Part shown: one piece after another, positions 27,172 to 63,843 of the stretch
Layout of the letters: the number at the start of each line of letters is the position of its first letter
How positions within the stretch are numbered: the first letter of the stretch is position 1
Made by a program: the position numbers and the translations under genes
From: Candidatus Bathyarchaeota archaeon
Lineage (GTDB): Archaea; Thermoproteota; Bathyarchaeia; 40CM-2-53-6
Direction: 5' to 3'
DNA length: 64,000 nt
NCBI GenBank assembly: GCA_963833125.1
Contig: CAWHWX010000001.1
Location: forward strand, 288,001-352,000
Notes under the pieces: model-generated
Seen by the model: the letters and a program-made list of their open reading frames with translations, nothing else
What the model was told of the DNA's origin: nothing
The model's database searches: none

Positions 27172-27198
27172 GTGTGAACCACTCAATTCCACTCACAC
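27172..27198 (-). repeat. Degenerate copy of the GTGTGTGG-N6-TGGTGCG site
   Basis: Reverse complement reads GTGTGAGTGG-AATTGAG-TGGTTCACAC (7-nt core). Confidence 0.5.
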
Positions 27199-27246
27199 CA
27201 AAACCACAACTGCAAATAAGTCATGTCAAAATGAGATTGTATTCCC

Positions 27247-27954
27247 ATGCCACAGATTCAGTTAATCGGAGACTTGACCAAGACACCCATCCCATCAGGA
27301 TCAAACATCCTGGTTGAGTTCGATCCATCATCACAGTGGTACAACGCTTCCCTCACCATCGCTGCAGGCTGGCTCAAACAAGGCGGCACTCTGATCTACA
27401 ACACGGGCGGTCAAATACCAAATGATATTCGGGCTACCCTCGGACAGCTTTCAGTAGATATTGGGGGATTGGAAAACTCAGGCAAGCTGAAGATTTATGA
27501 TTGGTATACAACCACGTTGGGTCAGAAATCGAGGGAAAAATTCGCGATTGATTCCCTAAGGATCCACGACCTTAGCATATATTTCTCGAAAGAAGCTATG
27601 CACGAATCACCCAATCCAGACCTGTTGAGAATTGGCGACAACGTTTCGACCCTAGCGAGGTTCAATGACGATAAGGCTTGGACGGAATTTCTACTAACTA
27701 GGAGTTTCCCATCTTCTGTGGTAAGAAAGTCAACCCAGATCCTTGGCATAGTAAATGGCGTTCACCCTGAGTCAGTCTACAAAACCCTCGAAGCCGGAGC
27801 GGATGGCATCATAGATTTCAAGCTTGACGAGTCAGGTAAGGAACTCCGGAACATCATGCGGGTTAGGAACATGCGTAAAGTCGTATGGGACGCACGATGG
27901 CATCAATTAACAATGCGCGAGAATCTGGAAGTCAGTTTAGAGGAATCAGGCTAA
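27247..27954 (+). CDS. RAD55/KaiC-like RecA-fold protein lacking Walker A
   Basis: IPSGSNILV, LKIYDWY, ADGIIDF and MRVRNMR; P-loop position reads EFDPSSQW. Confidence 0.8.
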   Translation: MPQIQLIGDLTKTPIPSGSNILVEFDPSSQWYNASLTIAAGWLKQGGTLIYNTGGQIPNDIRATLGQLSVDIGGLENSGKLKIYDWYTTTLGQKSREKFAIDSLRIHDLSIYFSKEAMHESPNPDLLRIGDNVSTLARFNDDKAWTEFLLTRSFPSSVVRKSTQILGIVNGVHPESVYKTLEAGADGIIDFKLDESGKELRNIMRVRNMRKVVWDARWHQLTMRENLEVSLEESG

Positions 27955-27985
27955 CCTGTGGTTTAAACCCCTGTCTAATGTGCCA

Positions 27986-28570
27986 TCATTTCAGCGCTTG
28001 CAAAATGTCTGACGTCTTCCTGACTCTTCCAATTCTTTTCAGGACGAACTCTATGGAACTCCTATGTGCTTCGGCGGAACGGTCTGACATGGCGTCTTCA
28101 GCGAAGATTTGCTGGTAGCCATACTCCTACGCGAACCTTGCGGTACTTTCTACTCCGTAAGTCGTTGCGATGCCTGCAAGCACAATTGTGTCGATCTCTC
28201 CGCGTCTGAGCCTAAGATCAAGGTCAGTTCCGTAGAATGCCCCCCACTGCCTCTTCGTTATCACTACATCAGATGGCGCAGGCCCCAATTCTGGTACTAT
28301 GTCCGCCCAATCTGCCGGCATCTCTCCTCTCGAAGGCATTGCAAGGTCAGCGATCGGTTGGAGAGCGGTTCCTTTTGAAAAGGCGACATGCACAAGGAAG
28401 ACAGGCATTTTGTTCTCTCGGGAAGCGCTAGCCAATTTCGCGGAGTTTGATATCACAGTCTTCGTGTCATACGGTTCAGTCGACATAGACGTGATTCCCT
28501 TTTGGAGATCGATCACTACGAGGGCTGTGTTCGCTTTGTTTAGAATCAGATCGCTCAATTCGCATCGCAT
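27986..28570 (-). CDS. Isochorismatase-family hydrolase (frameshift near 28127)
   Basis: VVIDLQ, KRQWGAF and GIATTYGVESTAR; continues EYGYQQIFAEDAM in another frame. Confidence 0.88.
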
Positions 28571-28720
28571 TGCAGAGCATTACAACTCATCTTCAATATT
28601 CATGTTGCCTCCTGAAAGTACCAGGTTAGCATAAGGTTCTCAGCTGCCTATGCATGAGTGCATTTTCCCATCATTTTCGTGGCCAAGGTTTAATGAGGCG
28701 TGTTTGCTTGCTTGCAGATC

Positions 28721-29812
28721 ATGCCAACAGCCAATTACGATCCCCTAGTACGTAACGTTCTTTCCAAAACGCTCGCGATTCAGTCGGGTGACGATGTCAT
28801 TGTTGAAACATGGGATCATGGCCTCCCCATTGCCGCGAATTTCATTTACCGACTGCGCGAGCTAGGCGCGCGCCCAATGCTATGGTTCGAGCATGAGAAA
28901 ACATTCTGGCAATCGATTGATTCACTTCCCGAAGATAAGCTGGGGAAGGTGGGTGACCATGAATGGGCTGCGATTGAGAAAGCTAAAGGATACATCTTCA
29001 TCACAGGACCTGCTGAGTTCTCCAGGGTATGGAAGAATCCGGCAAAATTCGGAGCGGCTACGGGCTATAATGAGGAATGGTACGAGAGAGCTAAACGCTA
29101 CCGGCTGAAAGCAGCCCGCATCGGCTTGGGTTATACTAGCGCTAATCGTGCTCGCTCATACAGGCTTCCATTAGCCGCGTGGCAGCGAATGCTGATCGAA
29201 GCATCTACTGTTGATTTCGCAGGGTTGAAAGGTCAGGTAACGAAGCTCGCTCCGTTAATGAAGAACGGCGAGGTTAAGATTACTTCTCCCAACGGAACAA
29301 ACTTGACCCTCCGACTGTTAGACCGAGAAGTTTCCTCGGAGGATTGCATAGTTGATCAGGACGATTTGGATCACGGAAGAAACGTGGCAAACATCCCCGG
29401 CGGCAACATCCTAGCCTGTCCAGATGAAATGTTCGCGGAGGGAAGGGTTGTCTTTGATAGACCAACTCCATACATGGGCAAGTGGGTAGGTGGGATGCGT
29501 TTGGATTTCAAAGACGGGATACTCACCAACTACAAGGCGACCCAAAACGTTGGTCACTTCAAAGCGAGTTACGATAAAGCCTCAGGCGAGAAGAATCGGA
29601 TTGCAGCTATTGGTGTGGGCTTGAATCCTAAGGCAAGAATAGGTTTCCTACAGGATACCATGGTCGCAGGTGCAGTCACCGTTGCAATTGGCGGTAACGA
29701 CGATATTGGCGGAGCGAGCAAGACCGATTTCTATTTCCCAGGCATCCTGACAAAGGCAACATTAACCGTCAACGGAAACACCATCGTTCGAAACGGTAAA
29801 CTGACCATGTGA
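28721..29812 (+). CDS. M29 aminopeptidase-like protein with degenerate metal ligands
   Basis: ITSPNGT, NIPGG, AEGRVVFD and GVGLNP fold markers. Confidence 0.8.
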   Translation: MPTANYDPLVRNVLSKTLAIQSGDDVIVETWDHGLPIAANFIYRLRELGARPMLWFEHEKTFWQSIDSLPEDKLGKVGDHEWAAIEKAKGYIFITGPAEFSRVWKNPAKFGAATGYNEEWYERAKRYRLKAARIGLGYTSANRARSYRLPLAAWQRMLIEASTVDFAGLKGQVTKLAPLMKNGEVKITSPNGTNLTLRLLDREVSSEDCIVDQDDLDHGRNVANIPGGNILACPDEMFAEGRVVFDRPTPYMGKWVGGMRLDFKDGILTNYKATQNVGHFKASYDKASGEKNRIAAIGVGLNPKARIGFLQDTMVAGAVTVAIGGNDDIGGASKTDFYFPGILTKATLTVNGNTIVRNGKLTM

Positions 29813-29868
29813 AACGTTCTTTTATCGAATACCAGTTATTTCAAGGCGCGCGATAAGCGAAGGAATCT

Positions 29869-32142
29869 GTGCTGCGCCCACCCTCGAATTCGATAACGGG
29901 AGCCCCTCTAATTCTTGTGGCTATGCTTCTAGCCCAAACCTTGGCATTTTCTCATGGTGCGACTACCGCATCGATCGGACAGCATGCCGTAGCGTCTCAA
30001 GACCCATCTTCCGACGACTGGCCCACCTACCACAGAGACATGCTCAGATCAGGATACGATCCGAACTTTCCTCAATTCACCTCCGCCGTCCAGCGAAATT
30101 GGACATCAACGACACTGGATGGGGACGTTTACGCCGAGCCTCTAATCGTCGGAGCGGATGTTGTAGTCGCGACGGAAGCGAACTCCCTATACGAACTAAA
30201 CGCGGTCACTGGCCAGATTCTATGGCACATGAATTTTGGAACTCCAGTCAATGGGGCGGTGCTCCCGTGCGGAGACATAAACCCGTCCGGCATAACTAGC
30301 ACCCCGGTCATTGATGTTGCCGGAAGAACGATTTTTACCGTCGCGTTCCTAGCATCGCCCTCCCTGCACCATCAATTATTCGGAGTTGACCTAGATACTG
30401 GAGCGGTCAAATTCCAGATGGGCATCGACCCGCCCGGCTCCAACCCTACAGTTCAGCAACAGAGAGGAGCCTTGGCTTTGGCTAATGGGTATGTGTATGT
30501 TCCCTACGGTGGGTTGGATGGGGATTGCGGGTCGTACCACGGTCGGCTCGCCGCGACCAACACTAACGGGGGAGGCCCTGTATTTGGTTACCAAGTTCCA
30601 ACCGGAAATGCAGGCGCTATATGGGGAGGAGGGGACGGTCCCGTCGTAGACCAGACAGGGAACCTGCTGGTTGCTACAGGTAACAGTTTTTCCACTTCGA
30701 CATTCGACTACGGAGACGCCGTGCTAAAACTCTCTCCAGCCACAAACCCTCCCATAACCCTGATCGATTATTTTGCTCCCTCAAACTGGGCCACGCTTAA
30801 CGGTGGCGATCTTGATCTGGGATCCACTGAACCAGTCACTCTCAGCTCGAGCTACCTCTTTCAAATCGGCAAGGAAGGCGTTGGCGACGTGCTTAACGCT
30901 ACCCACCTAGGGGGAATCGGAGGAGAACTCTACTCTGCCCAAGTGTGCAATAGCGGTGGCGGAGCGTTCGGCGGTTTGGCTTACTTCTCCCCGTACCTGA
31001 TAGTTCCGTGCGACAATGGCCTTGTAGCGCTGCAAGTGACTCTCGGTTCCAGCCCATCCTTCTCTGTTGCTTGGCGTGGCCCCACTTACTTTACCGGTCC
31101 GCCTATCGTTGCAGGCAACGCCGTATGGGATGTGGATGTTAGCCATGGGAAGATTTACGCGTTCAACCTGACCAGCGGGACACCACTGTTCACAGACTCG
31201 ATTGGGTCTCCCCCGACGCATTTCAACTCGGTAAGCGCGGGTGACGGAGCGATCTTCGTCACGGCCAGCCGACAGGTACGAGCTTACCGTCAACCAATGA
31301 CGGTCATATTTCACACGACCCCACCAACATTTCCAGGCGCAACTTTGCCGGGCTCAATCAAAGCTTGCGGTGGAACATTCAATGATAGCCAATCAACTGT
31401 TTGTGCCGCCAGTTTCCCGGTCACAGCAAACCTACCTTCGCCCTCGACTGGTTGGCAGTTTGATCATTGGACTTGGAACGGTGGATTAAGTTGTACACCC
31501 TCAATGAATATGGCGAGTTGTTCTACCTCCGCGGTTGGTGGATCATTAACGGCCGTCTACGCCGCCAAAGTCACTTTTCACACAAACCCAAGCTCTTCAG
31601 GAGCAATGATCAGTTGGACATCATGCGCTGCTGTCGGTGAAAGCGACGGAGCATCTATCAATAGCACGAGTTATGGTTTAGTCAGCGCCTGTTACGTGCC
31701 CTCCGGTTACACTCTAGCAAACTGGAGTTGTTCCGCTGGTCTGATGTGTTCCGGGTCGAATGATCCGACTCAGGTCATATTTACTGGTCCTGGAACAATT
31801 ACGTTGACCTTGAAGTCTGGTTCGATTTCGTTACCTGCGCAAACCAACATAACTGCTATAGCGACTCCCTTGAGCCCAATGCATGGGACCATGTTCACTG
31901 TTTCAGGAGTGTTACGGAATGTTTCGAATGGAGTTGGGATAGCTAACAAGCAGATTGTGTTGGTGTTCAGTTGGAGCACAAACGAAGCGACCGTCACGAC
32001 ACTGGGCAACGGCTCTTTCGCTTACAACGCCACCGCACCCTCCGCCGGCTCATATAACGTCGACGCCTTCTTCCTAGGCGACTACTCAACCAGCCCCCAG
32101 TATCTCCCAAGCAAAGCAACCGCCAATGTCACTGTTAATTGA
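29869..32142 (+). CDS. Secreted PQQ-like beta-propeller protein with Cys-containing beta repeats and a C-terminal Ig-like domain
   Basis: Signal peptide; DWPTYHRD..RSG, LNAVTGQILW, GITSTPVID and DLDLGS; FDHWTW/LANWSC repeats. Confidence 0.8.
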   Translation: MLRPPSNSITGAPLILVAMLLAQTLAFSHGATTASIGQHAVASQDPSSDDWPTYHRDMLRSGYDPNFPQFTSAVQRNWTSTTLDGDVYAEPLIVGADVVVATEANSLYELNAVTGQILWHMNFGTPVNGAVLPCGDINPSGITSTPVIDVAGRTIFTVAFLASPSLHHQLFGVDLDTGAVKFQMGIDPPGSNPTVQQQRGALALANGYVYVPYGGLDGDCGSYHGRLAATNTNGGGPVFGYQVPTGNAGAIWGGGDGPVVDQTGNLLVATGNSFSTSTFDYGDAVLKLSPATNPPITLIDYFAPSNWATLNGGDLDLGSTEPVTLSSSYLFQIGKEGVGDVLNATHLGGIGGELYSAQVCNSGGGAFGGLAYFSPYLIVPCDNGLVALQVTLGSSPSFSVAWRGPTYFTGPPIVAGNAVWDVDVSHGKIYAFNLTSGTPLFTDSIGSPPTHFNSVSAGDGAIFVTASRQVRAYRQPMTVIFHTTPPTFPGATLPGSIKACGGTFNDSQSTVCAASFPVTANLPSPSTGWQFDHWTWNGGLSCTPSMNMASCSTSAVGGSLTAVYAAKVTFHTNPSSSGAMISWTSCAAVGESDGASINSTSYGLVSACYVPSGYTLANWSCSAGLMCSGSNDPTQVIFTGPGTITLTLKSGSISLPAQTNITAIATPLSPMHGTMFTVSGVLRNVSNGVGIANKQIVLVFSWSTNEATVTTLGNGSFAYNATAPSAGSYNVDAFFLGDYSTSPQYLPSKATANVTVN

Positions 32143-32329
32143 CTGGTCCGTCGTATCCGCAGAGGTGCGTACGTACCTCCAATTCCTTGTTTCGTAGGTG
32201 CTGCGCACATCTGTTATCGCCCAAACAAGTTTGTTTGGCCAGGGTTACGGATTTGGAAACGCACGGGAGAGTGCTGATGTCGGCTACGTCAGCTAAATGG
32301 AAGGTTTCGTTTTCGTCGTTCGGTTTGAA

Positions 32330-32360
32330 GTGTGTATGGGTTTTGGTTTAGTTGGTGTGC
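32330..32360 (+). repeat. Degenerate copy of the repeat site
   Basis: GTGTGTATGG...TGGTGTGC preceded by the family arm TCGTCGTTCG. Confidence 0.4.
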
Positions 32361-32418
32361 CGCCTGCGGCGTCGCATGAAGTCTTATTAGGACTAAACAC
32401 ACGCTGAGCGCGTTAGGG

Positions 32419-32862
32419 GTGCGGTTTGTGAGGGTCGGAACGGTTTGGGTCAAGTATGTCCTTCTTGTTGCAGTCGTCCTAGCCTTGGCGACAACTATGA
32501 TTCCTAACGGGATGTCACTTGCTCCCGCGCAGACCTTCACATGCTCCAGTTTCGTCAGCACATCAACAACCTCTACTACAACGACGACAGTGACAACATC
32601 AATTTCGTCTACGCAAGTTCCCGGGTTGAGTGCCGTTTCCACAGTATCTTCATTTCAAACAACGAATACGTCTACCAGTACATCTTGCGATACGCTTTCG
32701 GGAACCTTTTCTGAGCTCCTCTCTGACCTTGTTACCGTCGTGATTATTCTCGGAATACCCTTGGCTATTCCTGAATACCCGTTGGGCTTATTCGTACTCG
32801 TAATCTTGATCGTGGTTGCGTACCTGTTTATCAAACGTAGGGCGACACGAGAACAGAGCTAG
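32419..32862 (+). CDS. Thr/Ser-rich surface protein with PEF-CTERM-like tail
   Basis: Signal peptide; Thr-rich linker; IPEYPLG-TM-KRR. Confidence 0.75.
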   Translation: MRFVRVGTVWVKYVLLVAVVLALATTMIPNGMSLAPAQTFTCSSFVSTSTTSTTTTTVTTSISSTQVPGLSAVSTVSSFQTTNTSTSTSCDTLSGTFSELLSDLVTVVIILGIPLAIPEYPLGLFVLVILIVVAYLFIKRRATREQS

Positions 32863-32951
32863 AATCACTTAGACCTAGCGTCAGAATCATCAACCGATTG
32901 GTGACAGCCACAAGAATTTTTTGCCCGTGAGGATAACGTTGCCCGTTTTCG

Positions 32952-33038
32952 GTGTATGTGGTATTAATGAGGCGGCCGTTGGGATTCGGACCGTCGTCGT
33001 TCGTCGTCAGAAAAGTGTGTGTATAGCTGGTGCGCACA
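32952..33038 (+). repeat. Two tandem repeat sites (cores TATTAA and TATAGC)
   Basis: GTATGTGG-TATTAA-TGAGGCG and AGTGTGTG-TATAGC-TGGTGCGCAC joined by CCGTCGTCGTTCGTCGTCAGAAAA. Confidence 0.85.
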
Positions 33039-33054
33039 GTCCGGGTCTGGAATT

Positions 33055-33501
33055 CTAGGCTAGATTTTGGTGGGCAATCGTGTGAGAACTCCTGACGGGT
33101 ACGAAGAGTTGTAGTTCGGTTTGACTTCGGTAGAATTCTATGGAAGGTCTTGTCGGGTCAATGTCGTGGACTTTGACCAGTTCTTGATATAATTGGGGGA
33201 GTTGACCGTCGCGGATCTTCTTTTCCCAGTCCAGAATTTTGCGACGAGCGTATATTCCTCCTGGAATCACCCCGGTCTCCAATTGCATCTTACCTGGGTC
33301 GTCGGCGTCGATTCTTGCCACGGACGCGTAGTACTCTTCTCCGTCAGGGGTTTCGTGGAAGACGCCGTAGAATTTTCGACCCTTCAGAGTTGGAAGCTTG
33401 GATTCTAGCAAATCCATGGCCGCCGACGGACCTTTGCCTTTCATGTCTGCTTTGACACGCATGATTGGGATTTCGTTAAGTTCAACATAGGTGTCGTTCA
33501 T
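33055..33501 (-). CDS. GyrI-like small-molecule-binding protein
   Basis: FYG, YYASV, IPGGIYAR and RPSIEFYRS. Confidence 0.8.
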   Translation of the reverse strand: MNDTYVELNEIPIMRVKADMKGKGPSAAMDLLESKLPTLKGRKFYGVFHETPDGEEYYASVARIDADDPGKMQLETGVIPGGIYARRKILDWEKKIRDGQLPQLYQELVKVHDIDPTRPSIEFYRSQTELQLFVPVRSSHTIAHQNLA

Positions 33502-33538
33502 AGAGAACTTCGGCGTGACGTCTGATATTTATGAATTG

Positions 33539-33560
33539 GAAGATGACTCGTGTCATCTTC
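33539..33560. promoter_or_regulatory. Perfect 9-bp inverted repeat upstream of the GyrI-like promoter
   Basis: GAAGATGAC-TCGT-GTCATCTTC next to a minus-strand ATAAATA box. Confidence 0.45.
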
Positions 33561-33570
33561 TGGTTGCCAG

Positions 33571-33778
33571 TCATTTTTCTGTGGGTGGTATAGCTGGTGC
33601 GTGAAAATGAATTTGAACTGTCGTCGTTCGTCGTAAAGTGTGTGTGTGGTATCGCTGGTGCGAGCGTCGGAAATTGAACCTTCGGTTTTAGTGTGTGGTA
33701 TTAGTGATGCGAGCACCCGAAATTGAACCGTCTGTCAGGCGTAATTTTGCGTGTGTGCGCACCAGCTATGCCAAGCAC
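33571..33778. repeat. Cluster of four repeat sites (three direct, one inverted)
   Basis: Cores TATAGC (33581), TATCGC (33642), TATTAG (33691) and inverted CATAGC (33751-33778). Confidence 0.9.
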
Positions 33779-33812
33779 GAAATGAATCTCCTGAACAGAT
33801 TTTTTGGTATCA

Positions 33813-34583
33813 TTAAATTCGAGGGGAAACTGTCCAGGTCCGGTAGTCTAGGATGTGGCGGAATCCCATTTTGAGATACACTGGGAATCCGATGGGGCTT
33901 GCCTGCAATGATGAGAGATCGCATCCGTGTTGAAATCCATCTTTCACAGCGAAAGCGCTCATGGCTGCGCCGAATCCTCTACCCCTGAATTCTGGGATGG
34001 TGCTCACGCCGTAGATTCCTGCAACGTTATCGGTTTCGTACAGAATAGAGGTAGCTACCGGCTTACCGCTGCAGATTCCCAGATAGTACGTCAAGCCTTT
34101 CGTTGCAAGGCTCTGAGGCGTAGCTAAACGGTCGAAGAAATTTGGGTCAGACATCTGGAAACCGAGAGCTGCTGCTCGCTCCCAAGACAAGCGTTCGCTT
34201 ACGTCACGAACTTGGCGGATTTCCAAGTCGGAAGGCAGGGGTCGGAGGGTAGCTGCTTCCTTGGGCAAAATCATTTCTGGATCCCTCCTAAACCGCGTGA
34301 CCGGTACGTGCCGAGGTATCTCGTAGAAATCATCTCCAACCGAGGGAGGCACAACGATCTTCCATTCAGACCTTTGCTCAGCAAAGAAGCGCTTCACTCT
34401 CTCCAGAGTCTCAGGCCGCACACCAGCCTTGTCCGATACCAGAGCACAATTCCAGTCATTCAATAGGATAGGACTGCGCATACACATAACCCCCGGAAAA
34501 TACTCAATCGTACCTCCGCTCTCAGCTGCGAAGGCGGATGAAGCAGCGAAGAAATTACGCGTCACACGTTCTTCGGTTGACAT
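33813..34583 (-). CDS. GNAT N-acetyltransferase
   Basis: AGIYGVSTIPEFRGRGFG and LQASPIGFPVYLKMGF. Confidence 0.9.
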   Translation of the reverse strand: MSTEERVTRNFFAASSAFAAESGGTIEYFPGVMCMRSPILLNDWNCALVSDKAGVRPETLERVKRFFAEQRSEWKIVVPPSVGDDFYEIPRHVPVTRFRRDPEMILPKEAATLRPLPSDLEIRQVRDVSERLSWERAAALGFQMSDPNFFDRLATPQSLATKGLTYYLGICSGKPVATSILYETDNVAGIYGVSTIPEFRGRGFGAAMSAFAVKDGFQHGCDLSSLQASPIGFPVYLKMGFRHILDYRTWTVSPRI

Positions 34584-34615
34584 AATACCACGAAAAACAG
34601 TACCAGTATCCACCG

Positions 34616-35434
34616 CTACGTGGCGAGTGTTGCTTCTCCGTTTGGTTTGATTTCTATTTGATGCCAAGCCGAGTCATGAGGTTGTCCTCTGAGACTCCTG
34701 ATTCTCAGAAAGTTCTGGGCCTTCTCTTCTTTTTCCATTACTCTGATGTCTATAACTCCGTCCCAATCGGCTTCCATGCGTCGATACACCCATTCGGGAT
34801 GGACTCCGCGAACGAAGCCCTGTAAGGTGATACGGTTCGCTCTCCGCTCGTTTGGATTAACTCTGCTTTCCATCCACTCCACGTATGCTTTCTCGTCGTT
34901 GAATCGCATTTGCGAGGAACACGATTCGACCAATAACAAACTCCATCCGGCCATGTGTGTTTGCCCTACTGTGTCCCTTTCATAGACTTCCGGGCTCAAC
35001 TTTGTCCATTTGAGCCATTCGAGGCTGAGGTCTGAAACCTTCAAAGACCGGACTCTGACTCCCCCATCGATTTGTTCGAAGAGTCCTTCATGCCCTCCTT
35101 CAGTTCTTACACGGCCACCGGTGAGGGTTGCGGAATACCAGTCCTGGACTTCGAGACGTCCTTCCTTCAATGTCGCCGATACATTAATTTCCAAAGCCGA
35201 TAAGGCATCTAAGACATTATTCCTCGATCTTGCCATCGCCAAATAACCAACACTTCTGTTTTCCAGTAGAGTTTTCGCGGCAATAGTCGCGGCGACGGCG
35301 AACCATTGAGACTCAGGATCAAATTCAACGCCAAAGATCGTTGCAGGTTTAATTCCGCCCGGAATAAGTTGAGTTAGAAGAGGAATGTCAACGCGGCCAG
35401 CGGAAGGCAAGTTATACCTGACAAAAGTAGACAT
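34616..35434 (-). CDS. RAD55/KaiC-like RecA-fold protein lacking Walker A
   Basis: LIPGGI, EFDPESQW, DWYSATL, DGVIDIR and LRIRSLRG. Confidence 0.8.
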   Translation of the reverse strand: MSTFVRYNLPSAGRVDIPLLTQLIPGGIKPATIFGVEFDPESQWFAVAATIAAKTLLENRSVGYLAMARSRNNVLDALSALEINVSATLKEGRLEVQDWYSATLTGGRVRTEGGHEGLFEQIDGGVRVRSLKVSDLSLEWLKWTKLSPEVYERDTVGQTHMAGWSLLLVESCSSQMRFNDEKAYVEWMESRVNPNERRANRITLQGFVRGVHPEWVYRRMEADWDGVIDIRVMEKEEKAQNFLRIRSLRGQPHDSAWHQIEIKPNGEATLAT

Positions 35435-35497
35435 TCAACTAACCAAAAGCATTGACGGTCCAAGTTTTCAGCCAAGTGCGTGTAAGCATGATGTGAG

Positions 35498-36433
35498 TTA
35501 ACCGATAAGTATCTGAGCAAGCTGGTGTGGCTCAATGTTTCCGCCGGTTACGAGAAGCGCTACGTTCTTCCCCTGCAATTCGTCCCGGATTTTTGTGGCG
35601 GCGGCTGTTGAGGCTGCTCCTGATAACTCAGCTACTTGACCAGTAGTTGAGAAGATCGTTCTCACAGCTTCCATCATTTCCGCGTCGCTGACGAGAACGA
35701 CATCATCCAACTTCTCCTTTAGAAAACTGAACGGCAACTCATAGGCCTGTGAAGTAGCCAATCCCTCAGCCTTCGTCTTTACGCCATTAGTGGACGTAAT
35801 CGACCCGCTCTTCCATGACTTGTAAAAGGCTGGTGCACCTTCGGCTTGCACGCCAATCACTCTGATCTTCGGGTCGATGGACTTGTAGACGATACACGCC
35901 GAGGATGCCGCTGACCCGCCTCCGATCGGAGCGATCACAATATCCAAATCGGGCTGTTCTTCGATGACTTCCAAATGCATAGTGGCAACGCCTTCGAAGA
36001 GCAGCGGCTCATTGCTAGCATGGATGTACAGGTACCCATTCTGAGAAGCCAGCTTCTCCGCGTACTCACGTGCCTCATCATAGTAGCTTCCGTGGAAAAG
36101 AAGTTCTGCACCCAAATCCTTGACAGCCTCAGACTTTAGCTGAGGGACGCCGTGTGGCATAACAATCTTGACCTGTACTCCGAATAGCTTGCCTGCATAG
36201 GCTACTGACTGAGCGTGATTACCTGTCGACGCCGTAATGACTGTACGAGATTGGCCTTGCTTCACCAAGTTCTCAATAAAGCGCACACCTCCGCGAACTT
36301 TGAATGCCCGTGTGGGCTGGAGATTCTCCAGTTTGAGGAAGACCTCGCACCCAAGTAGTTTCGAAAGCCCTCTCGGGTGAATCAGAGGGGTCGGCTTCAA
36401 GTAACGATTAACGATTGTTCGTGCGACAAACAC
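35498..36433 (-). CDS. PLP-dependent threonine/serine dehydratase
   Basis: KLENLQPTRAFKVRG, ASTGNHAQ, PIGGGS and TGGN. Confidence 0.92.
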   Translation of the reverse strand: MFVARTIVNRYLKPTPLIHPRGLSKLLGCEVFLKLENLQPTRAFKVRGGVRFIENLVKQGQSRTVITASTGNHAQSVAYAGKLFGVQVKIVMPHGVPQLKSEAVKDLGAELLFHGSYYDEAREYAEKLASQNGYLYIHASNEPLLFEGVATMHLEVIEEQPDLDIVIAPIGGGSAASSACIVYKSIDPKIRVIGVQAEGAPAFYKSWKSGSITSTNGVKTKAEGLATSQAYELPFSFLKEKLDDVVLVSDAEMMEAVRTIFSTTGQVAELSGAASTAAATKIRDELQGKNVALLVTGGNIEPHQLAQILIG

Positions 36434-36615
36434 ATCGAGCAGACGTGGAATCTGAGATTGCGCCGATATTCATCACGCTCACCTTTCCCGTTGCTAATTT
36501 CCACTCCGATAAGAGCCTTCAACTAAAGAAGCTGTTCATTCGACAAACAAAATCACCGGCTCAGTTTCCAGTATTTTACCACAATCGAACCAAACCCTCG
36601 TGGAGACTTCCTCGG

Positions 36616-37503
36616 TCATGGATGAGGCTCGGGTTCCAGGGGTTTGCCGTAGATGGTCGTGATTGCAGTAGATACTAGTATCAAGAAACCGCCGAACCAT
36701 TGAGATATGGTGAGTTTGTTTCCGAAGAGGGCTAGCGAGAGAAGTACTGAGGTGACCGGTTCGATGAGGCTGATCAATGCAGCTCTTGAGGGACCTATTT
36801 TCGAAATGCCGATGAAGAAAGCAGTTGCTGCGAAAACGGTGCATACGAGTGTTATGGTCAGCACCCAGAACCATCCAGCAACGCTCCAGTTCAAACGGAT
36901 CGAACCGGTCAGTGCTCCGGTTAAGCCAAAGGTTACCGACGCGGCTCCCATCACGTAGAAGGCAGCTACGTCTCCCTTTACCCTTCTAAGAACCTTCGAG
37001 CTGCTTAGAATGTAGATCGTGTATACTATCGATGAAGCAAATGCGAGGAACACGCCGAGGCCGATAGCTGTCCCGAACGGATTTGCAACCAAGACCAAAC
37101 CAATCAATGCTATTACGAAAACTCCTGCGAGACGGCGCGGTACCCGCTCCCATCCTAACAAGAATGCGCCTAACGTAACGAAGACTGGGTAGGTGTAAAG
37201 AAGCAGCGCAACGATTGCAACAGGCGAAAAGAGGAGAGCTGTAAAGTAGAAAGTGGATTGCAGGAAGTAGACCAATGCACCGAGTATAATCAACGCCAAA
37301 AGGTCGGTTCTCTTGGGAAGAACCAGCCTATGGGAAAGGGCGAGAAGTGTTCCCATAATCAGGAATGCGAGAAGGAATCTGACGAAGAGAAGCTCATCAA
37401 CACCAACTCCTTGAGCGTAGGCTAACTTAGCGAAGATGGGCTGGAAGCCAAACGCGACGGCTGACACAAAAACAAGGATTGTTCCTTCGTGATCACTCTT
37501 CAT
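36616..37503 (-). CDS. EamA/DMT transporter
   Basis: 10 TM; RFLLA, LLYTYP and IEPV. Confidence 0.9.
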   Translation of the reverse strand: MKSDHEGTILVFVSAVAFGFQPIFAKLAYAQGVGVDELLFVRFLLAFLIMGTLLALSHRLVLPKRTDLLALIILGALVYFLQSTFYFTALLFSPVAIVALLLYTYPVFVTLGAFLLGWERVPRRLAGVFVIALIGLVLVANPFGTAIGLGVFLAFASSIVYTIYILSSSKVLRRVKGDVAAFYVMGAASVTFGLTGALTGSIRLNWSVAGWFWVLTITLVCTVFAATAFFIGISKIGPSRAALISLIEPVTSVLLSLALFGNKLTISQWFGGFLILVSTAITTIYGKPLEPEPHP

Positions 37504-38472: not shown

Positions 38473-38585
38473 TCGCTAAACGCCGTCGACGTCTTGCATA
38501 TCAGAGATGATTAGCTTTCCGCCAAATCCTTGGTCGGCGAATATAAGTGTCAATTTGCAGGTCAACAGCAACAGTTACAGTTTGT

Positions 38586-39083
38586 TCAACGATTCAATGA
38601 TGACAGTAACACCACGTTCTGCAAACCTGCCATCCAGTGCCCTATCGCTAACAAAATCATGAACAACATGATTGCTGCGGCTTGACCAGCGGCCGTTGTC
38701 GCGAACGAACTTGTTCTCGTAACTGAGTAGGCTTTCCAAATCAAAACTATTTCAAACGCCCAGGTAGCAGCTAAGCCAATGAACAGGCCTGTAGTACCCA
38801 AGCCCAAGTTATACATGAGGAATATTACGAAGATATTTCCAACTTCTTCGAAGCTGCCCCTGAACATGGGATTAACGAACGCAGTAATCGTTGACGCAGA
38901 ATCAATCAGCTCACCCGTCACTAAGGCCAACGTAGCAATGGTCACGTAGAATCGAAGCGACGCCAACTCTGTTACGACACATCCGCCTATCCGGTGACTG
39001 AGAATAGTACCAACAGGTTTTGTTAAGTTGATGGGCGTTGATTCGACTGTTAGGTGCCGGGTGTCGAGGGTATGATGTCTCAA
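38586..39083 (-). CDS. Hypothetical membrane protein (start uncertain, likely near 38975)
   Basis: Several hydrophobic helices; D..ST...EVGN motif. Confidence 0.55.
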   Translation of the reverse strand: MRHHTLDTRHLTVESTPINLTKPVGTILSHRIGGCVVTELASLRFYVTIATLALVTGELIDSASTITAFVNPMFRGSFEEVGNIFVIFLMYNLGLGTTGLFIGLAATWAFEIVLIWKAYSVTRTSSFATTAAGQAAAIMLFMILLAIGHWMAGLQNVVLLSSLNR

Positions 39084-39407
39084 GTTCCGTTGATTAAGGC
39101 TCTGTCAAAAATCGAAGGGTTCGGAGCGTTTGCCTCACGACGAATAGAAAAGGAGTCTCAAATTGCGGTTTGGGATGGACCTTATGCTCACGAACTACCG
39201 AGTGATGCTTCTGCGAAATACTACCTGTATGTCAGACCGCACGTATACCTCGTAGGCTTCGGAGGGGACTACCCAGAATCTTTCATCAATCATTCCCGCA
39301 ATCCGAACAGCAAAATCGTTTGGACCGGTGACATAGCGATTCTTGTTGCAATACGCGACATTGAACAGAACGAAGAAGTTACCTTCGATTATGGGTTTTC
39401 GCCATGA
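39072..39407 (+). CDS. SET-domain protein-lysine methyltransferase
   Basis: GFGAFA, FINHSRNPN and RDIEQNEEVTFDY. Confidence 0.88.
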   Translation: MMSQVPLIKALSKIEGFGAFASRRIEKESQIAVWDGPYAHELPSDASAKYYLYVRPHVYLVGFGGDYPESFINHSRNPNSKIVWTGDIAILVAIRDIEQNEEVTFDYGFSP

Positions 39408-39524
39408 TGCTGCAAGTTAATTATCGCCCGACAGTTAACAAGCCTATCGAGCACACTTCAACTTAACAGAACCCGATTCAGTTACAGATATTACGGTCTT
39501 TACATTTGTTGGCTGCTGAGTTGT

Positions 39525-40196
39525 TTGAGTGTGAAGTGTCCGTCTTGCGGTAACGAGATGCCGGAAGGTAACAAGTTCTGTCCCAGTTGCGGTTTCAAGG
39601 TCGAAACCACACAACCCCAAGCAGCAAGCCCCGTCGGCTCCAGTTCAGTTTTCTCGGGTATGGAGTATATTATCGAGCAGAAGATTGCTGCATTGCGGGA
39701 TACGTTCGGCATTAAGGACAGAAACGGCAACTTGCTGGCTTACGTGAAGAAGAAACTCGTCAGTTGGGGGCCACAATTCTATTTCGAAACACCAGACGGA
39801 TCCACGTTGGGTGAGATGAAGGGTAAGGTACTAACGGTCAGGCCGACGTTCGAAATTTACAACCCCCAAGGACTTGTAGCAGTGGTCAAGAAGAAGGTCC
39901 TGAAGCTGCTAGGTTCGGAATGGTGGCTTGAAGATTCGACCGGGAAGGAGATTGCGAGAATTAATGGGAATATAACTGCGCATGAGTTTTCCATTCAAAG
40001 CCCATCAGGTAACACAATAGCCCAGATTCATAAGAAATGGGTGAGCATTCGTGATTCCTATGGCGTAGAAATACAGAGCCGAGAAATCGATCCGTATGTG
40101 ATTCTGGCTTATGCGATCGCCATGGACAACGCCGAATTCAAAGGTGCAAAGAAGGGCTTCGGCATTGGGTTCGGAGGCATACGAACCGACTTCTAA
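39525..40196 (+). CDS. Zinc-ribbon + LURP-one/scramblase (Tubby C-like) protein
   Basis: CPSCG..FCPSCG; HKKWVSIRDSYGVEI. Confidence 0.85.
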   Translation: MSVKCPSCGNEMPEGNKFCPSCGFKVETTQPQAASPVGSSSVFSGMEYIIEQKIAALRDTFGIKDRNGNLLAYVKKKLVSWGPQFYFETPDGSTLGEMKGKVLTVRPTFEIYNPQGLVAVVKKKVLKLLGSEWWLEDSTGKEIARINGNITAHEFSIQSPSGNTIAQIHKKWVSIRDSYGVEIQSREIDPYVILAYAIAMDNAEFKGAKKGFGIGFGGIRTDF

Positions 40197-40216
40197 CTGA
40201 AATGGTATACTTGGAG

Positions 40217-40248
40217 GTTCTCAAATGCCTGGTACATTGAGAACTTTT
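40217..40248 (+). terminator. Hairpin plus T-run between convergent genes
   Basis: GTTCTCAA...TTGAGAAC followed by TTTT. Confidence 0.35.
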
Positions 40249-40294
40249 CAGCGAGATTCAGAGTTTCTGTGGCAATTGTGCATTTCGGTCTTTC

Positions 40295-40314
40295 GCGTGT
40301 GGGTCTGGTGACTG
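40295..40314 (+). repeat. Degenerate copy of the repeat site
   Basis: GCGTGTGG-GTCTGG-TGACTG. Confidence 0.3.
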
Positions 40315-40337
40315 TTACCGGTACGGTTTCGTTTCAA

Positions 40338-41207: not shown

Positions 41208-41474
41208 GAAACCATACCGTCCGCGACTCGTTCCAGGCACACTCCACTCGGACTCCTTAGACTTTAGTGCTTCCGGCCGAGAGACTACTACCATCGTCGA
41301 TTTTCATTTGGAATCGGCTGGATCCTTCACTCCGTTGTTGCTGTTGGTGTAACTCAGCTGTTCTAAGGTTGTGAATTGTTATAGTCTAAGAGTAGAGTTT
41401 ACCAGCCGCTTACGTAAATACTGTAACGGCCAGTATCCTATACTTCTAACCTGCCGTAAAAGGAGCATTCACAT

Positions 41475-41530
41475 GTGTGTGGTATAGCTGGTGCGCGCAC
41501 ACACACACACTTATTGAAGGAACGACGATC
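41475..41530 (+). repeat. Repeat site (core TATAGC), palindromic type
   Basis: GTGTGTGG-TATAGC-TGGTGCGCGCACACACACACAC...GAACGACG. Confidence 0.9.
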
Positions 41531-41567
41531 CAAAATATGACGGAGCACGAGGTGCGTATTCGGTGAG

Positions 41568-42035: not shown

Positions 42036-42121
42036 CGGTGTTAACCCGTTTCCGTTGTGTCGTTATAAATCGCTTACGGAATTTCCCATCCTCAAATCTT
42101 GGCAGACGTTGAGTTAGCTTA

Positions 42122-42228: not shown

Positions 42229-42288
42229 CAGTGGATCTCTAATACCGTAAGCAACTCTCAAATACTCCAATCATGCGAAGTCTGATTT

Positions 42289-48479: not shown

Positions 48480-48622
48480 ATTGAATCAACGACACATAGT
48501 CCGTTTTTCAAGCGAGATATGCTTTCCCATACAGCAGACCTTGGTCTAGAACTCGTAGCGGACGCTTCGCCCATGGTCTATCTGTCACCGGTGGTAGTCA
48601 ACACAGACGACTGAGTCTATTT

Positions 48623-49552: not shown

Positions 49553-49636
49553 GGGCCATAGTCTAATTCTTTCCCGATAAAGCGCTTACTGCGAGGCTAA
49601 CAGGTTATGCCAAAGAAATTCGCAGCTCGACTCAGT

Positions 49637-52866: not shown

Positions 52867-52923
52867 GTTTGAATCAAGTCTTTCCCAATACTGGCAACCC
52901 TAGGAAATGATTACAAGGCTTTC

Positions 52924-54190
52924 GTGATCGTTGACGTAACAAAAATGGATGTGGTTGGTGTGACTTCGGCGAGTCAAGTCGCCACGGAGCGCTTGGTTCA
53001 ACGATCGCTTGCGCCTGCAAGATGGTTCTGGTTGGATTGGCTCAGAGTTATCGCCATGGGCACTATCTTCCTGTTTCATAGTAGCAGGCCCTTCGCGCCG
53101 CCTCCATGGCATGTTATGAACTCGACTTTGGATCTAGGGTTCACTCTGTTCGACGCTTTCATTTCCGGATGGATCATGCCCCTCTTCTTCGTAATCTCAG
53201 GTATCGCCGTGTACTCTTCTCTAAGAAAACGAAGTGGAAGTGCCTCTCAATTCCTTAAGGACCGATTCATGCGACTCATGATCCCCTTCCTAACCGTTGG
53301 ACTGCTAGTCATTTTATCTGTGAACGTTTACTACGACGCAGTCTTCCACGGGAATTTCACGGGAGACTTTCTCAGCTTCTATCTTGGACCGTACTTCACG
53401 AAGTTCTTCCCATTCGACCTGAACTTTTCATCCACCTATTTCGCAGAACTCGAATCAGGGCATATACCTTTGGTACCTCTTCTGGCTGTTCGCCTTCTCC
53501 ATCGCGACATTTCCCTTGTTCAGATGGCTCGCGAAGGAAGTGAACCGCGAGAGGCTCTCGAAGCTGTACGCTGCCTGCAACAGGCGGGGAGGCATTCTAT
53601 TGCTGGCGATTCCTCTGATCATTGTGAATATAGCCGCGGTGCCGCCTTACTTCGTCTTTCCCAGCGGCTATGGAGGCTGGAAACTCCCCGCATACCTCGT
53701 GCTTTTCGTCATTGCTTACGTGATGGCTTCTAGCCCTCAATTCGAAGAGTCGATCGAGAAGAACCGGAAAATCAGCTTGATTTTGGGGGTCGTCATAAGC
53801 CTCATCATAATCGCCATAGCAGCTTCATCCGGAGGCGCGCCCGCTTCATCTGGCATAGACGGTTCTTACGTTGTGGTTTCCACGATCTGGGCATTGAACG
53901 GGTGGTGCTGGGTGACGGCGATACTTGGCTTCGGGCGCAAATACCTCTCCTTCGACCACAAATACCTGAAAGTCTCAAATGAACTCGTGTTACCGTTCTA
54001 TATTCTCCATCAGTCCGTCATCGTCGCAGTAGCCTTCTATGTTGTCGGTCTGAACTTAATCGTGATCGAGAAATACCTTCTAATCGTGCTCGTATCATTT
54101 CCAATAATAGCGGCTCTACTTTACCCTGTTAGCAAAGTCAATGTGCTCAGGTTTCTGTTTGGAATGCGAACGAAGACGCACGCTTCCTGA
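52924..54190 (+). CDS. Acyltransferase 3 family membrane protein (OpgC/MdoC-like; frameshift near 53450)
   Basis: LDWLRV, MPLFFVISG, RLMIP and PFYILHQ. Confidence 0.85.
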
Positions 54191-54206
54191 GGGCGAGCAA
54201 CAATCG

Positions 54207-54238
54207 CATGTGGGGTTATCGTGGTACGCACCCACATG
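54207..54238 (+). repeat. Divergent repeat site (core TTATCG)
   Basis: CATGTGGGG-TTATCG-TGGTACGCACCCACATG; outer 8 bp perfectly inverted. Confidence 0.7.
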
Positions 54239-54296
54239 GACAGTCGTCAAGCCATATTGTAGAATATCGTTCGAGACGCGTTTTCTCGGCTGTTGC

Positions 54297-61714: not shown

Positions 61715-61762
61715 GTTCAAATTCAGTTGCCCGCACCACTAGACCCACACACACTGAACGAC
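61715..61762 (-). repeat. Repeat site (core GTCTAG) with tRNA-3'-like arm
   Basis: Plus strand reads GTTCAAATTCAGTTGCCCGCACCA-CTAGAC-CCACACACAC. Confidence 0.9.
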
Positions 61763-61791
61763 CCGCCGGAAGACTGCCCTCGACTAATTCT

Positions 61792-62127: not shown

Positions 62128-62132
62128 CTTGC

Positions 62133-62726
62133 CTAGGTCGCCTTCCTGTTTCTCCCACTTCCGTTGAGCGGCGGGTATGCGATAAGTAACACGAATTGAG
62201 TGGGATTTAGCGAAATCTGTTCGAAGAGACCCTCGTAGCCACAGACTGGTTTATCGCAACGGTTCGGTGCAACAAGCTCTGGGGTATACTCGGTTCTGCA
62301 ACGAGGGCATCTAACCATACGCTTTCCTGACCACGCAATCGTCGCGAATCCAGCATTGGCATAGATTGGTGCCCAACTTTCCGCGTCGAGTTGAGGAATG
62401 ACAACACTAACAGTGTCAGTTGGGTGGCTTCTCTTGTACTTTTTGAGTTGTCTTAGTGTTCCTCCGATATCATATTCGTGAATCTCCCCAACCCGCAAAA
62501 CCTTGACGTGCGTCTTTATCTCGAATCTTAGTCTATGATTCGAGGTCGTGGCTGAAACATCGGGCCAGCCTTCCCCAGAAGGATCTTCCAGATCGAAGCC
62601 CAAGAGATCTTCCCGCACCAGTTCTTTTGTGATTGTTCTTAGACCACCATCCAGAACAAACGTGCGAGCAACATCATCCTGAAGAGTCACTGACCGGACA
62701 CTTCCTACTCCTTTGCAATGGATCAC
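62133..62726 (-). CDS. Putative PD-(D/E)XK nuclease with inserted zinc ribbon
   Basis: WPDV...FEIKT and QLKKY helix; CPRC...CDKPVC. Confidence 0.65.
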   Translation of the reverse strand: MIHCKGVGSVRSVTLQDDVARTFVLDGGLRTITKELVREDLLGFDLEDPSGEGWPDVSATTSNHRLRFEIKTHVKVLRVGEIHEYDIGGTLRQLKKYKRSHPTDTVSVVIPQLDAESWAPIYANAGFATIAWSGKRMVRCPRCRTEYTPELVAPNRCDKPVCGYEGLFEQISLNPTQFVLLIAYPPLNGSGRNRKAT

Positions 62727-62759
62727 GTCTGGGAGACATTATGTGATCTCCACACTGTT

Positions 62760-63566
62760 CTAGGTTTTGGTTATTGGAATGCCAAAGTCGGCAAAAGTCT
62801 TCTGGATCTCAGAATTGGCCAGACTTACTGCTATCCCGTATAGACTTGGTATCTTTATCCAAATTTCTTGGCCGTTCTTCTCCAAATGCCTTTGACGAAC
62901 TGGCATGGGTTGAAAGCGTGTGCAAATAGCATGAACATTTCCAGTCGATTGAGCGATAATAGGTCCACCGCTATTTCCGTAGTTCAAAGCCTTGTCAAGC
63001 ACGTATACCTTTGTATCCGCCGCGGACATCACCATTCTTGACTTCTCGAAAGTTGAAGAAACTATTGCAGATGTAACTCGCGGGGAATGCTCAACTATTC
63101 CGACTGTTGCGCCCGGCATTTCGAATGATTTTGCCATCGACAATGGGTACCCAAATGAGTATACGGGCTCTCCCTCCTCCAAGTCGCGCACTGAAGTGAG
63201 TATGTAGGGAAACTCAGTTTTTCCTTGTAGCCAAGCCTTGTTGGAGTTCTTTGCGAAATCAACTTTTATTAGCGCAAAATCATTTTTCGAATCTACATGT
63301 TTTAGCTCAACGTACTGACACATGTCTCCGGGTCTCCCTTGCCCTGGTCGAGATTCTTTCATCAACCAAGCCTGGTTGACATCATCTCGAACTTTTGCTG
63401 ACTCACCTTCGCCATGCATTACGACATGTGCAGCCGTAGCAAACCAGCCGTCACTTGACACGAAGAAACCTGTTCCTGCAGGTGTTGGCAGACCTTTGTT
63501 CAAATCGCTGGGAAGATCGATAGAGAACGTGGCAGTTTGTGTTCGACTAAGGGTTTTCCTAATCAT
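62760..63566 (-). CDS. Trypsin-like serine protease, no signal peptide
   Basis: GTGFFV, TAAHV, DFALI, GYP and GNSGGP. Confidence 0.9.
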   Translation of the reverse strand: MIRKTLSRTQTATFSIDLPSDLNKGLPTPAGTGFFVSSDGWFATAAHVVMHGEGESAKVRDDVNQAWLMKESRPGQGRPGDMCQYVELKHVDSKNDFALIKVDFAKNSNKAWLQGKTEFPYILTSVRDLEEGEPVYSFGYPLSMAKSFEMPGATVGIVEHSPRVTSAIVSSTFEKSRMVMSAADTKVYVLDKALNYGNSGGPIIAQSTGNVHAICTRFQPMPVRQRHLEKNGQEIWIKIPSLYGIAVSLANSEIQKTFADFGIPITKT

Positions 63567-63822
63567 CGATTGTACCTTCTATCCTTGCAGCGACCTTACG
63601 ATACACTCGAAAACTTTTTCGACCTTTGGCGTTTTGTCGGAGATAATGAAGCGTACTCTTGCCAATGCCCCGTTGTTTGGCATGAGATCCAGTGAGCGAG
63701 AATCTTAGCGCGCATTCCAAGATCCGCATTTCGTACTAGCCTTGGTGCAGGATAGTCCGCACTACAATTTCAACACGCCGAACAGTAGCGCGTCACGGCC
63801 GGCGGCTGCGAAGAGTGGTGCA

Positions 63823-63843
63823 GGGTGTGGGTATTCATGGTTT
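63823..63843 (+). repeat. Degenerate copy of the repeat site
   Basis: GGGTGTGG-GTATTCA-TGGTTTG. Confidence 0.3.

Follow-up and report, generated by a model that had tools for sequence, protein, structure and literature searches.

A tRNA-Derived Repeat Family Associated with Shuffled Accessory Gene Cassettes in Bathyarchaeia

A short intergenic repeat, GTGTGTGG-N6-TGGTGCG, divides the accessory genes of a 64,000-nucleotide stretch of the genome of a Candidatus Bathyarchaeota archaeon (contig CAWHWX010000001.1, positions 288,001 to 352,000; hereafter the window) into units of one to a few genes. The repeat family and its tie to shuffled accessory cassettes are real, and its copies derive from the 3' end of a tRNA. 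We tentatively favour, at a little short of even confidence, the explanation that the repeats are tRNA-derived attachment-site copies, together with secondary sites, that build and reshuffle flexible islands. The window lies on contig C1 of a 3.07-Mb genome (G000), whose closest relative is G016.

Origin and anatomy of the repeat

Reverse-complemented, the sequence TGGTGCG reads CGC-A-CCA, a tRNA 3' end made up of the end of the acceptor stem, the discriminator base and CCA. Read on the tRNA strand, a full copy consists of a decayed T-loop and T-stem, CGC-A-CCA, three variable bases and GAC-CCACACAC, and about one third of the copies run on into the decayed T-arm. The 3' part of the tRNA is contained in the site, as it is in elements that target tRNA genes. 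In real tRNA genes with the acceptor stem GCGGCCG, N6-CCACACAC follows directly after CCA. Such motif-bearing genes lie at C16:463652-463744 (Rfam tRNA, 48 bits) and, as an intron-rich gene, on C6 (C6:3380-3539), C18 and C29; the intact tRNA was seen at the island edge at C18/C6/C29 and at C16. The ARAGORN isotype calls are unreliable for these genes, and the program is weak on such intron-rich tRNAs. The other 17 tRNAs found with Rfam carry different trailers. The same core accompanies the same tRNA type (GCGGCCG) in G098 and G028, which belong to a different, AT-rich family (f2). An earlier note on the window, which took the repeats for att-like sites of an integron- or pdif-like system, had missed this source.

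The sequence that follows TGGTGCG distinguishes several types of copy. The A type continues with CACACAC, which produces a dyad; the B type continues with RGC-N5-AAATTTGAACC, the reverse complement of the T-loop and T-stem, and often runs on into the side arm GTCGTCGTTCGT; the C type has a GC-rich tail, and further flank types exist. In the GCGGCCG tRNA genes, TTTGAACC shares its register with the B copies. The GC-rich flank (CCGCCCCCGCCGCC...) was seen in several genomes, at C1:124692, C1:352831 and C16:447247 of G000 and on C14 (L252) of G003. The 11-6-11 dyad that had been described for the copy at 44116 is present in the sequence, but it is restricted to copies with CACACAC next and is not general; the second inverted arm is missing in copies with a T-arm-like or GC-rich tail. 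The side arm ACCGTCGTCGTTCGT was indeed found beside several copies. The N6 core, described before as variable, differs among copies but is constrained, its first three bases being mostly GTC, GTA or TAT (over 415 copies from many genomes, G 65%, T 69% and C 60%), and the 15 specified bases are 88-98% conserved in the same set. Units in the genome are found head-to-tail at intervals of 49-70 bases; the genome also has seven inverted compound pairs, each 85-97 bases long.

In the window, 11 matches at no more than two mismatches were found (33581+, 33642+, 33691+, 33758-, 41475+, 43595+, 44116+, 44902-, 45934+, 47032+, 61732-), against a mean of 0.16 and a maximum of 2 in 100 dinucleotide-preserving shuffles. 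About 16 clear copies had been claimed, at coordinates that proved accurate to 0-7 bases; 11 of them stand at this threshold and the other five are weaker variants. The absence of copies from 1-27 kb was borne out, with 0 matches at up to three mismatches and seven 4-mismatch matches, which is chance level. The whole genome holds 73 matches at no more than two mismatches, and contig C1 alone accounts for 28 of these, which form two clusters. A scan with a position weight matrix (PWM) gave 81 hits against 6 in a reversed-sequence control at a score of at least 14, and 63 against 0 at a score of at least 20. The intergenic position of the copies also held, since 61/63 genome copies at the higher score lie outside open reading frames (ORFs) of at least 110 aa; these calls rest on a simple ORF caller, by which 85% of the genome is coding. 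Clusters were found at C1:96-125 kb, C1:320-353 kb (the window), C28:139-159 kb, C14:65-67 kb, C16:446-464 kb and C18:126-129 kb, and on small contigs.

The repeat is a feature of Bathyarchaeia. Five near-complete relatives hold 31-70 copies each at no more than one mismatch (controls 0-1), and a match is present in 64/105 genomes of the order, with the repeat in 22/22 genomes of genus g1 and 10/10 of genus g15. Presence is patchy in families f2, f5 and f9; genus g12 has 0-2 matches per genome (22 genomes), and no scanned genome of families f7, f6, f4, f8 and f3 has a match. Nearly all copies in G098 and G028 are one identical 21-mer, with the same A and B flanks. A 28-base A-type pattern, searched against species-representative genomes, matched 108 stretches where chance predicts far fewer than one (hand arithmetic). 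Among the 80 of these 108 loci that were listed, 71 are titled as Candidatus Bathyarchaeia/Bathyarchaeota, 3 are titled simply 'archaeon' and 6 are short contigs in bacterial bins, which identifies the family as one of Bathyarchaeia. A description of the repeat was not found in the literature, a weak statement given that few searches were on Bathyarchaeia and supplements were not covered; the accessible part of PMC6563490 holds nothing on it.

Islands, cassettes and replacements at the sites

The syntenic backbone shared with G016 covers 6-60 kb of the window, at 79-93% nucleotide identity over the matched genes and blocks, and in those 60 kb of G016 there is one weak copy. Five segments of the window are absent from this locus of G016 (29859-36617, 38522-39480, 40144-47213, 48533-49636 and 52870-54282), and all copies between 27 and 58.6 kb fall in such segments. 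Two of the five, 38522-39480 and 48533-49636, contain no copy. Both are single-gene segments with no repeat at their edges; the gene of 38522-39480 recurs in G016, G013 and G014, and adjoins a repeat in G014.

Pieces of the window-specific segments are found elsewhere in G016, bounded by copies. At one G016 locus (L009), successive inter-copy blocks correspond to five different places in the genome of the window at 67-96% identity, four blocks in a row to four different places. The cassette 43582-44134 recurs in G002 and G017, bounded by copies, and the cassette 44894-45887 is 93% identical to G016, again bounded by copies, in a different context. In 20 pieces of G016 picked for holding copies, 51 junctions between neighbouring best hits were classed, and copies stand at 12/32 non-syntenic and 0/19 syntenic junctions (one-tailed Fisher p ~0.001, hand arithmetic), a comparison within pieces that is still fair under this choice. 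Gene-content breakpoints therefore coincide with sites, a check that the earlier note had proposed. The remaining 20/32 synteny breaks have no scored copy, and several of them hold decayed or indel-bearing copies. The segments absent from G016, the synteny breaks and the recurring cargo agree with the original view that the copies bound accessory blocks of one to a few genes.

The same behaviour is seen at the level of strains. The contigs C6, C29, C39, C11, C2, C3 and C33 are variants, at 92-96% identity, of stretches of larger contigs. The bin therefore mixes at least two close strains (contamination 7%), and these contigs served as a strain comparison. C29 is 92-97% identical to C6/C18 apart from replaced segments, and immediately downstream of one and the same tRNA the cassette of C29 differs from that of C6. 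The replaced segment at the tRNA has the tRNA's own copy at one boundary and a second copy at the other; C29 and C6 remain alike through side arm and left arm of the copy, beyond which the shared sequence ends. A KaiC-like gene stands at this tRNA in opposite orientations in the two haplotypes. One haplotype also has a 1.7-kb insertion (C29:4621-6320, L019) with a single 368-aa, secreted-looking ORF. The site of this insertion is in, or at, the 5' part of the same tRNA; a direct repeat of about 33 bases of the tRNA 5' end flanks the insertion, which represents a second kind of single-gene insertion at that tRNA.

Metagenome contigs from four runs (three studies), with small shares on 40100-47300, show loose ends that accumulate at copies. 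In a single contig, position 40199 is followed directly by 47137, leaving the site empty as in G016, and the joint shows 6 bases of microhomology. The depth of the cassette 44920-45887 far exceeds that of its neighbours, and its continuation is the one seen in G016. Many contigs match the 44116 copy alone and diverge on both sides (depth 84.8 in X2), with loose ends at 44109-44115 and 44136-44152. Where the two sides of a joint measured 21-31 bases, the joint was put down to cross-matching between repeats and not to a deletion.

The copies of the window differ in form and state of decay. The decayed copy at 27172-27198 (- strand), recognised by eye below the PWM threshold, keeps the left arm, a short tRNA-end box, the spacer and a CACAC box, and sits upstream of a KaiC-like gene (27247-27954). 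The weak copy at 32954-32974 (+), which has three mismatches and runs on into a T-arm-like tail and then the side arm, closes the block 29859-33022, which in G016 lies on another contig and also ends at copies; the copy at 33015-33034 (+) is missing one G of the left arm (GTGTGTG-TATAGC-TGGTGCG). In the compound array at 33581-33778, three copies stand head-to-tail (33581+, 33642+ and 33691+) and are closed by the inverted 33758-; the period is 49-61 bases, and each unit consists of the core, a T-arm-like tail and the side arm.

Several copies lie in a 6.9-kb window-specific insertion (40200-47136). A decayed one at 40295-40315 (+), with the left arm and part of the remainder kept, lies about 97 bases inside the left edge, and a B-type copy with a T-arm-like tail (47032-47071, +) lies 84 bases inside the right edge. 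Between them are an A-type copy at 41475-41510 (+; no more than two mismatches) and an inverted pair at 42122-42212, formed by the A-type 42122+ with three extra left-arm bases and the weak 42192- with three mismatches, whose linker holds a reversed side arm and a T-arm-like tail. A copy at 43595-43615 (+) with the side arm before it is the left border of the cassette 43582-44134. Two further A-type copies lie at 44116-44146 (+; no more than two mismatches) and at 44902-44932 (-), the latter at the start of the homology of the cassette 44894-45887 to G016. The copy at 45934-45954 (+; no more than two mismatches) is split from its CACACAC partner (46010-46016) by an insertion remnant. Outside this insertion, a weak copy at 54208-54237 (+), in the window-specific segment 52870-54282, has three mismatches with matching changes on both arms. 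The B-type copy at 61732-61790 (-) has a well-formed T-arm and more tRNA-like sequence, but no 5' acceptor strand, and is a partial tRNA gene; the identical 21-mer occurs in G016 about 200 bases from the same conserved block. The copy at 63823-63843 (+) is decayed, with the left arm and part of the remainder kept. Four copies had been called degenerate before; those at 27172, 40295 and 63823 are recognisable as decayed, while the one at 32339 has four mismatches and is doubtful.

The cargo identified with Pfam comprises GNAT, EamA, metallo-beta-lactamase fold, cupin, glyoxalase-type, DinB and KaiC-like proteins, family-2 glycosyltransferases and an oxidoreductase. The commonest cargo is a KaiC-like/MEDS-like family with no visible P-loop, which accounts for 22/220 ORFs within 350 bases of a copy and is represented in the insertion by the gene at 42806-43543 (+). 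The proteins of this family are about 240 aa long, with members in the window at 27247-27954, 34616-35434 and 42806-43543 and 21 members genome-wide; the paralogues are 24-26% identical to the first member and often lie between inverted copies. Typically the copy upstream of a KaiC-like gene is in the tRNA orientation and the downstream copy is opposite, 0-50 bases past the stop. The family was rejected as the partner enzyme: its number is uncorrelated with that of the copies (G017 has 70 copies and 0 matches; g12 has 4-10 matches and no motif).

Enzymes, orientation and competing explanations

Under the explanation that we favour, integrating elements that target the tail of the GCGGCCG-acceptor tRNA would import small accessory blocks, each event leaving a copy. 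Later exchange among copies, either site-specific or by short homology, would move, invert, replace and delete blocks, and each genome would end up with a few islands in which cassettes of one to a few genes form a mosaic. The enzymes would be carried by rare transient elements, such as viruses or small integrative elements, rather than by the islands. We infer that the copies were created by integration, that an integrase recognises the 21-base core and that the exchanges are enzyme-driven. Directly repeated neighbours have an identical N6 in 11/90 pairs, against 2.4% of random pairs, which would fit attL/attR pairs or local duplication.

Two loci join an integrase to the repeat. The viral record G105, which has tail and baseplate-like genes, encodes a 363-aa tyrosine integrase with a zinc ribbon, the start of which is 270 bases from a B copy; this copy is followed by a KaiC-like ORF and is 860 bases from the end of the record. 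G011 encodes an integrase at a distance of 560 bases from a tRNA whose end reads CGCACCA; a B copy in direct orientation is found 4.4 kb away. The G105-type family (E<=1e-8) was found in 0/22 genomes of the nearly motif-free g12 and in 9/22 other g1 genomes; the genome of the window has a weaker match (35% identity, E 3.5e-18), as well as one weak, broken match to an SSV-type integrase, on C12 beside a weak copy. A second viral record, G106, has no integrase within 9 kb of its copy. At the end of contig C16 (C16:1-13 kb, L022) there are six tyrosine-recombinase matches, with three consecutive ORFs of about 415 aa that resemble a recombinase trio; these are not near any repeat cluster.

We put this explanation no higher because the enzyme is missing, the orientations are mixed, the left arm is too conserved for passive scars and the breakpoints are not fixed. 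The observations that weigh against it are as follows. No recombinase is encoded among the 30 scanned ORFs of the window, as had been noted, and whole-genome family searches (PF00589 included) found no recombinase or transposase on contig C1. A tblastn search with 10 integrase queries gave 0 hits in 556 kb around 242 copies, and neither G018 (98% complete, 36 copies) nor G059 (30 copies) has a PF00589 match at E<=1e-5. Twelve loci with homologues of the G105 integrase have 0 copies within 1.5 kb, and this type was rejected as a general partner (0/12). The co-occurring recombinase that the earlier note had suggested looking for was not found tied to the sites, and tyrosine recombinases do not track the motif. 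A viral collection gave 46 exact matches, which is about chance by a rough estimate, and 2/46 are true family members by their flanks. ARAGORN found no tRNA on contig C1, the island of the window included, and in the 80 loci it found only 5 tRNAs, none abutting a copy. A variable block often has a copy at one end only; the replaced block between C39 and C32 begins at a copy and ends at none; and the outermost copies of the 6.9-kb insertion lie 84-97 bases inside its edges, the empty site being without a copy. The 8-base left arm lies outside the tRNA and yet is 88-97% conserved across families, which is not expected from the plain decay of scars.

The positions at which homology breaks count in the same direction. 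Copy pairs that share one flank (at least 80% identity) but not the other show no single break position. Breaks fall to the left of the left arm (C1:99678 vs G016), at the boundary of left arm and N6 (the tRNA copy vs G016, where N6 stays with the tRNA), directly after CCA (the C16 tRNA vs G016, where N6 differs) or beyond the copy. The two middle patterns could result if a tyrosine recombinase cut at both edges of the spacer. With breaks so spread, in or beside sites and at no one base, a fixed crossover is not proven.

Neighbouring copies are, moreover, of mixed orientation. Pairs more than 150 bases apart (overlapping loci included) are ++ in 44 cases, -- in 46, -+ in 63 and +- in 29, giving 90 direct and 92 inverted pairs, and the inverted pairs favour left arms that face the cargo, 63 to 29 (43 vs 18 in the 80 loci alone). 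Tandem integration would be expected to yield direct repeats, so the mixture counts against it, and it does not predict the excess of left arms facing the cargo. This excess is the main support for a different explanation, which we regard as unlikely, namely that non-autonomous cassette transposons, mobilised by a transposase acting in trans, have the core as their terminal inverted repeat. The cargo would lie between inverted 21-base ends with the tRNA-like box outermost, and insertion beside a tRNA would restore its 3' end. The KaiC-like genes, typically placed between oppositely oriented copies, and the KaiC-like cassette that is reversed between two haplotypes at the tRNA are in agreement with such an element. 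So are the seven inverted compound pairs, which junctions of adjacent units would yield, and the copies of G098 and G028, near-identical including N6 and often about 100-130 bases from contig ends, which have the look of a recent burst. Set beside miniature inverted-repeat transposable elements, which are uniform short elements with inverted ends, a target duplication and a related autonomous IS, the family shows the seven inverted pairs, and no autonomous partner was found in the genome. Nevertheless, direct pairs are as frequent as inverted ones, the copies around the same cargo are oriented ++ in one genome and -+ in a second, and the N6 of the two ends of a unit are at chance likeness (2.7 vs 2.5 of 6). 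Searches of the genome of the window gave no Y1 transposase (PF01797), TnpB, Cas1, serine recombinase, DDE_Tnp_1, DDE_3 or, by family search, IS110 match, and no multi-copy gene at 70% identity or more beyond haplotype duplicates. Casposon-like arrays were rejected with the absence of Cas1 from the genome; DDE_Tnp_1 and DDE_3 were rejected also as uncorrelated with the motif.

The repeat is itself the target of an element. An IS110-family element of about 1.3 kb with a DEDD transposase (PF01548) is present in five copies in G003 and also in G002 (L250-L253). Four aligned full copies share the same insertion point in the left arm, in repeats with flanks A, B and C, and the full copies of G003 and G002 combine a DEDD transposase, a non-coding left end and one specific repeated target, as is characteristic of IS110. 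The left non-coding region has a stretch resembling GACCCAC of the target, as a guide RNA would. The remnant in the 45934 copy of the window (45955-46016, - strand) corresponds to the first ~62 bases of such an element and lies between TGGTGCG and CACACAC; it has 86-97% matches at 5 places in G003, with DEDD_Tnp_IS110 about 150 bases away. According to the accessible part of the literature, the IS110 family uses guide RNAs and lands in repetitive extragenic palindromes (REP) or other conserved intergenic repeats.

This insertion habit is one reason to consider that the core could be a host repeat, the binding site of a conserved protein, similar to REP and bacterial interspersed mosaic elements (BIME) or to the mosaic elements of Neisseria, that became secondarily a recombination hot spot and landing pad. 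Shuffling would then reflect short-homology or homology-facilitated illegitimate recombination. Conservation of the 15 specified bases across families of very different base composition, copy-rich genomes without a detectable tyrosine recombinase, breakpoints scattered over the repeat, the one-sided association of copies with blocks, the 6-base microhomology at the empty-site joint and the tandem and compound arrays would all suit a host repeat. We judge it improbable, as it gives no role to the tRNA derivation or to the fixed link with a single tRNA type, and as the copies are confined to variable islands, with none in the 27-kb core and a single weak one in the 60-kb backbone of G016. The repeat is also too patchy, being almost lacking in g12 (0-2 matches per genome, 22 genomes) and in several families of this order, and the genome has no RAYT-type (Y1) gene.

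That the core is a transcription signal (a promoter element, a terminator or an RNA-processing site) travelling with accessory transcription units is very improbable in our estimate. The tRNA orientation does agree with transcription in 21 vs 8 co-directional gene pairs, and cassette homology often begins at the upstream copy. However, the distance to the next start codon varies from 42 to 563 bases, which also disposes of the fixed spacing that a transcription-factor site, an alternative raised in the earlier note, would have. Copies at 43595 and 45934 lie between convergent genes, and T-runs stand before, not after, the A-type inverted repeat, so that terminator and promoter were dismissed on geometry. 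A mutated left arm is accompanied by a compensating change of the CACACAC box in only 2/53 A copies, which gives no evidence of a selected stem, and hairpin selection was dismissed. No Rfam family matches the window, and an RNA gene or known RNA family was dismissed on this ground.

A dedicated, new cassette-exchange system of Bathyarchaeia from soil and peat is possible but doubtful. It would combine a 21-base site mimicking the tRNA tail, including the 8-base box, with a trans-acting recombinase outside the scanned families, by which single accessory genes would be inserted, inverted and exchanged at numerous places in the chromosome. If true, such a system would explain both the conservation of the site and its presence in genomes without tyrosine recombinases, and it would be the archaeal functional counterpart of integrons or pdif modules.

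Relation to known systems and significance

Among described systems, the tycheposon islands of Prochlorococcus are the closest case. In the accessible part of the source, such islands start from the 3' side of certain tRNA genes and contain scattered partial tRNA copies; integrase-bearing elements are rare and transient, small cassettes are left behind, and secondary insertion takes place beside short tRNA segments (10.1101/2020.12.28.424599), all of which resembles what we propose here. Partial tRNA genes have likewise been described as integration scars in archaea, in the part available of 10.1101/2022.07.05.498093. Unlike tycheposons, the present system is archaeal, has a conserved site that reaches 14 bases past the tRNA and includes an invariant 8-base box, and shows about one copy per kb, in both orientations and mostly around single-gene units. 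No hallmark integrase or replication module was found near the 242 copies.

The earlier comparison with pdif modules is a loose one. The Xer-dependent pdif modules of Acinetobacter plasmids are mobile units of one to a few genes between short, often inverted sites, with the recombinase acting in trans. Small modules that lie between short sites and move among contexts are common to both. In contrast to pdif, the dyad is confined here to copies with CACACAC after them, the sites lie on the chromosome and derive from a tRNA, and several copy-rich genomes have no detectable tyrosine recombinase.

The repeat system is not an integron. Arrays of mostly single accessory genes between repeated sites, and cargo such as acetyltransferases, glyoxalase-type proteins, DinB and transporters, do recall integrons as presented in the accessible part of 10.1101/2022.02.06.479319, in which the string 'Bathyarchae' has 0 occurrences. 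The integron-like reading of the earlier note fails, though, since there is no integron integrase beside the arrays, no attC-type folded site or fold constraint, orientations are mixed and each genome has many arrays.

REP/BIME and the neisserial mosaic elements are short, conserved intergenic repeats that form tandem or compound arrays of modules and are tied to rearrangement. The present repeats are likewise intergenic and arranged in tandem and compound arrays, with IS110-family elements inserted in copies; unlike REP/BIME, they come without a Y1 (RAYT-type) gene, number tens of copies in variable islands and derive from a tRNA.

Gene exchange in the abundant, uncultured Bathyarchaeia is poorly known. 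The repeat provides a short, scannable site that marks gain, loss and rearrangement of accessory genes, and it could help to delimit islands and cassettes in metagenome-assembled genomes and act as bait for the responsible enzyme, virus or element. As the natural target of an archaeal IS110-family element, it also offers a target-and-element pair for the study of RNA-guided recombinases. If a dedicated recombinase exists, the system would represent a new archaeal platform for gene capture; otherwise, it would be a clear archaeal case of island building seeded by tRNA genes.

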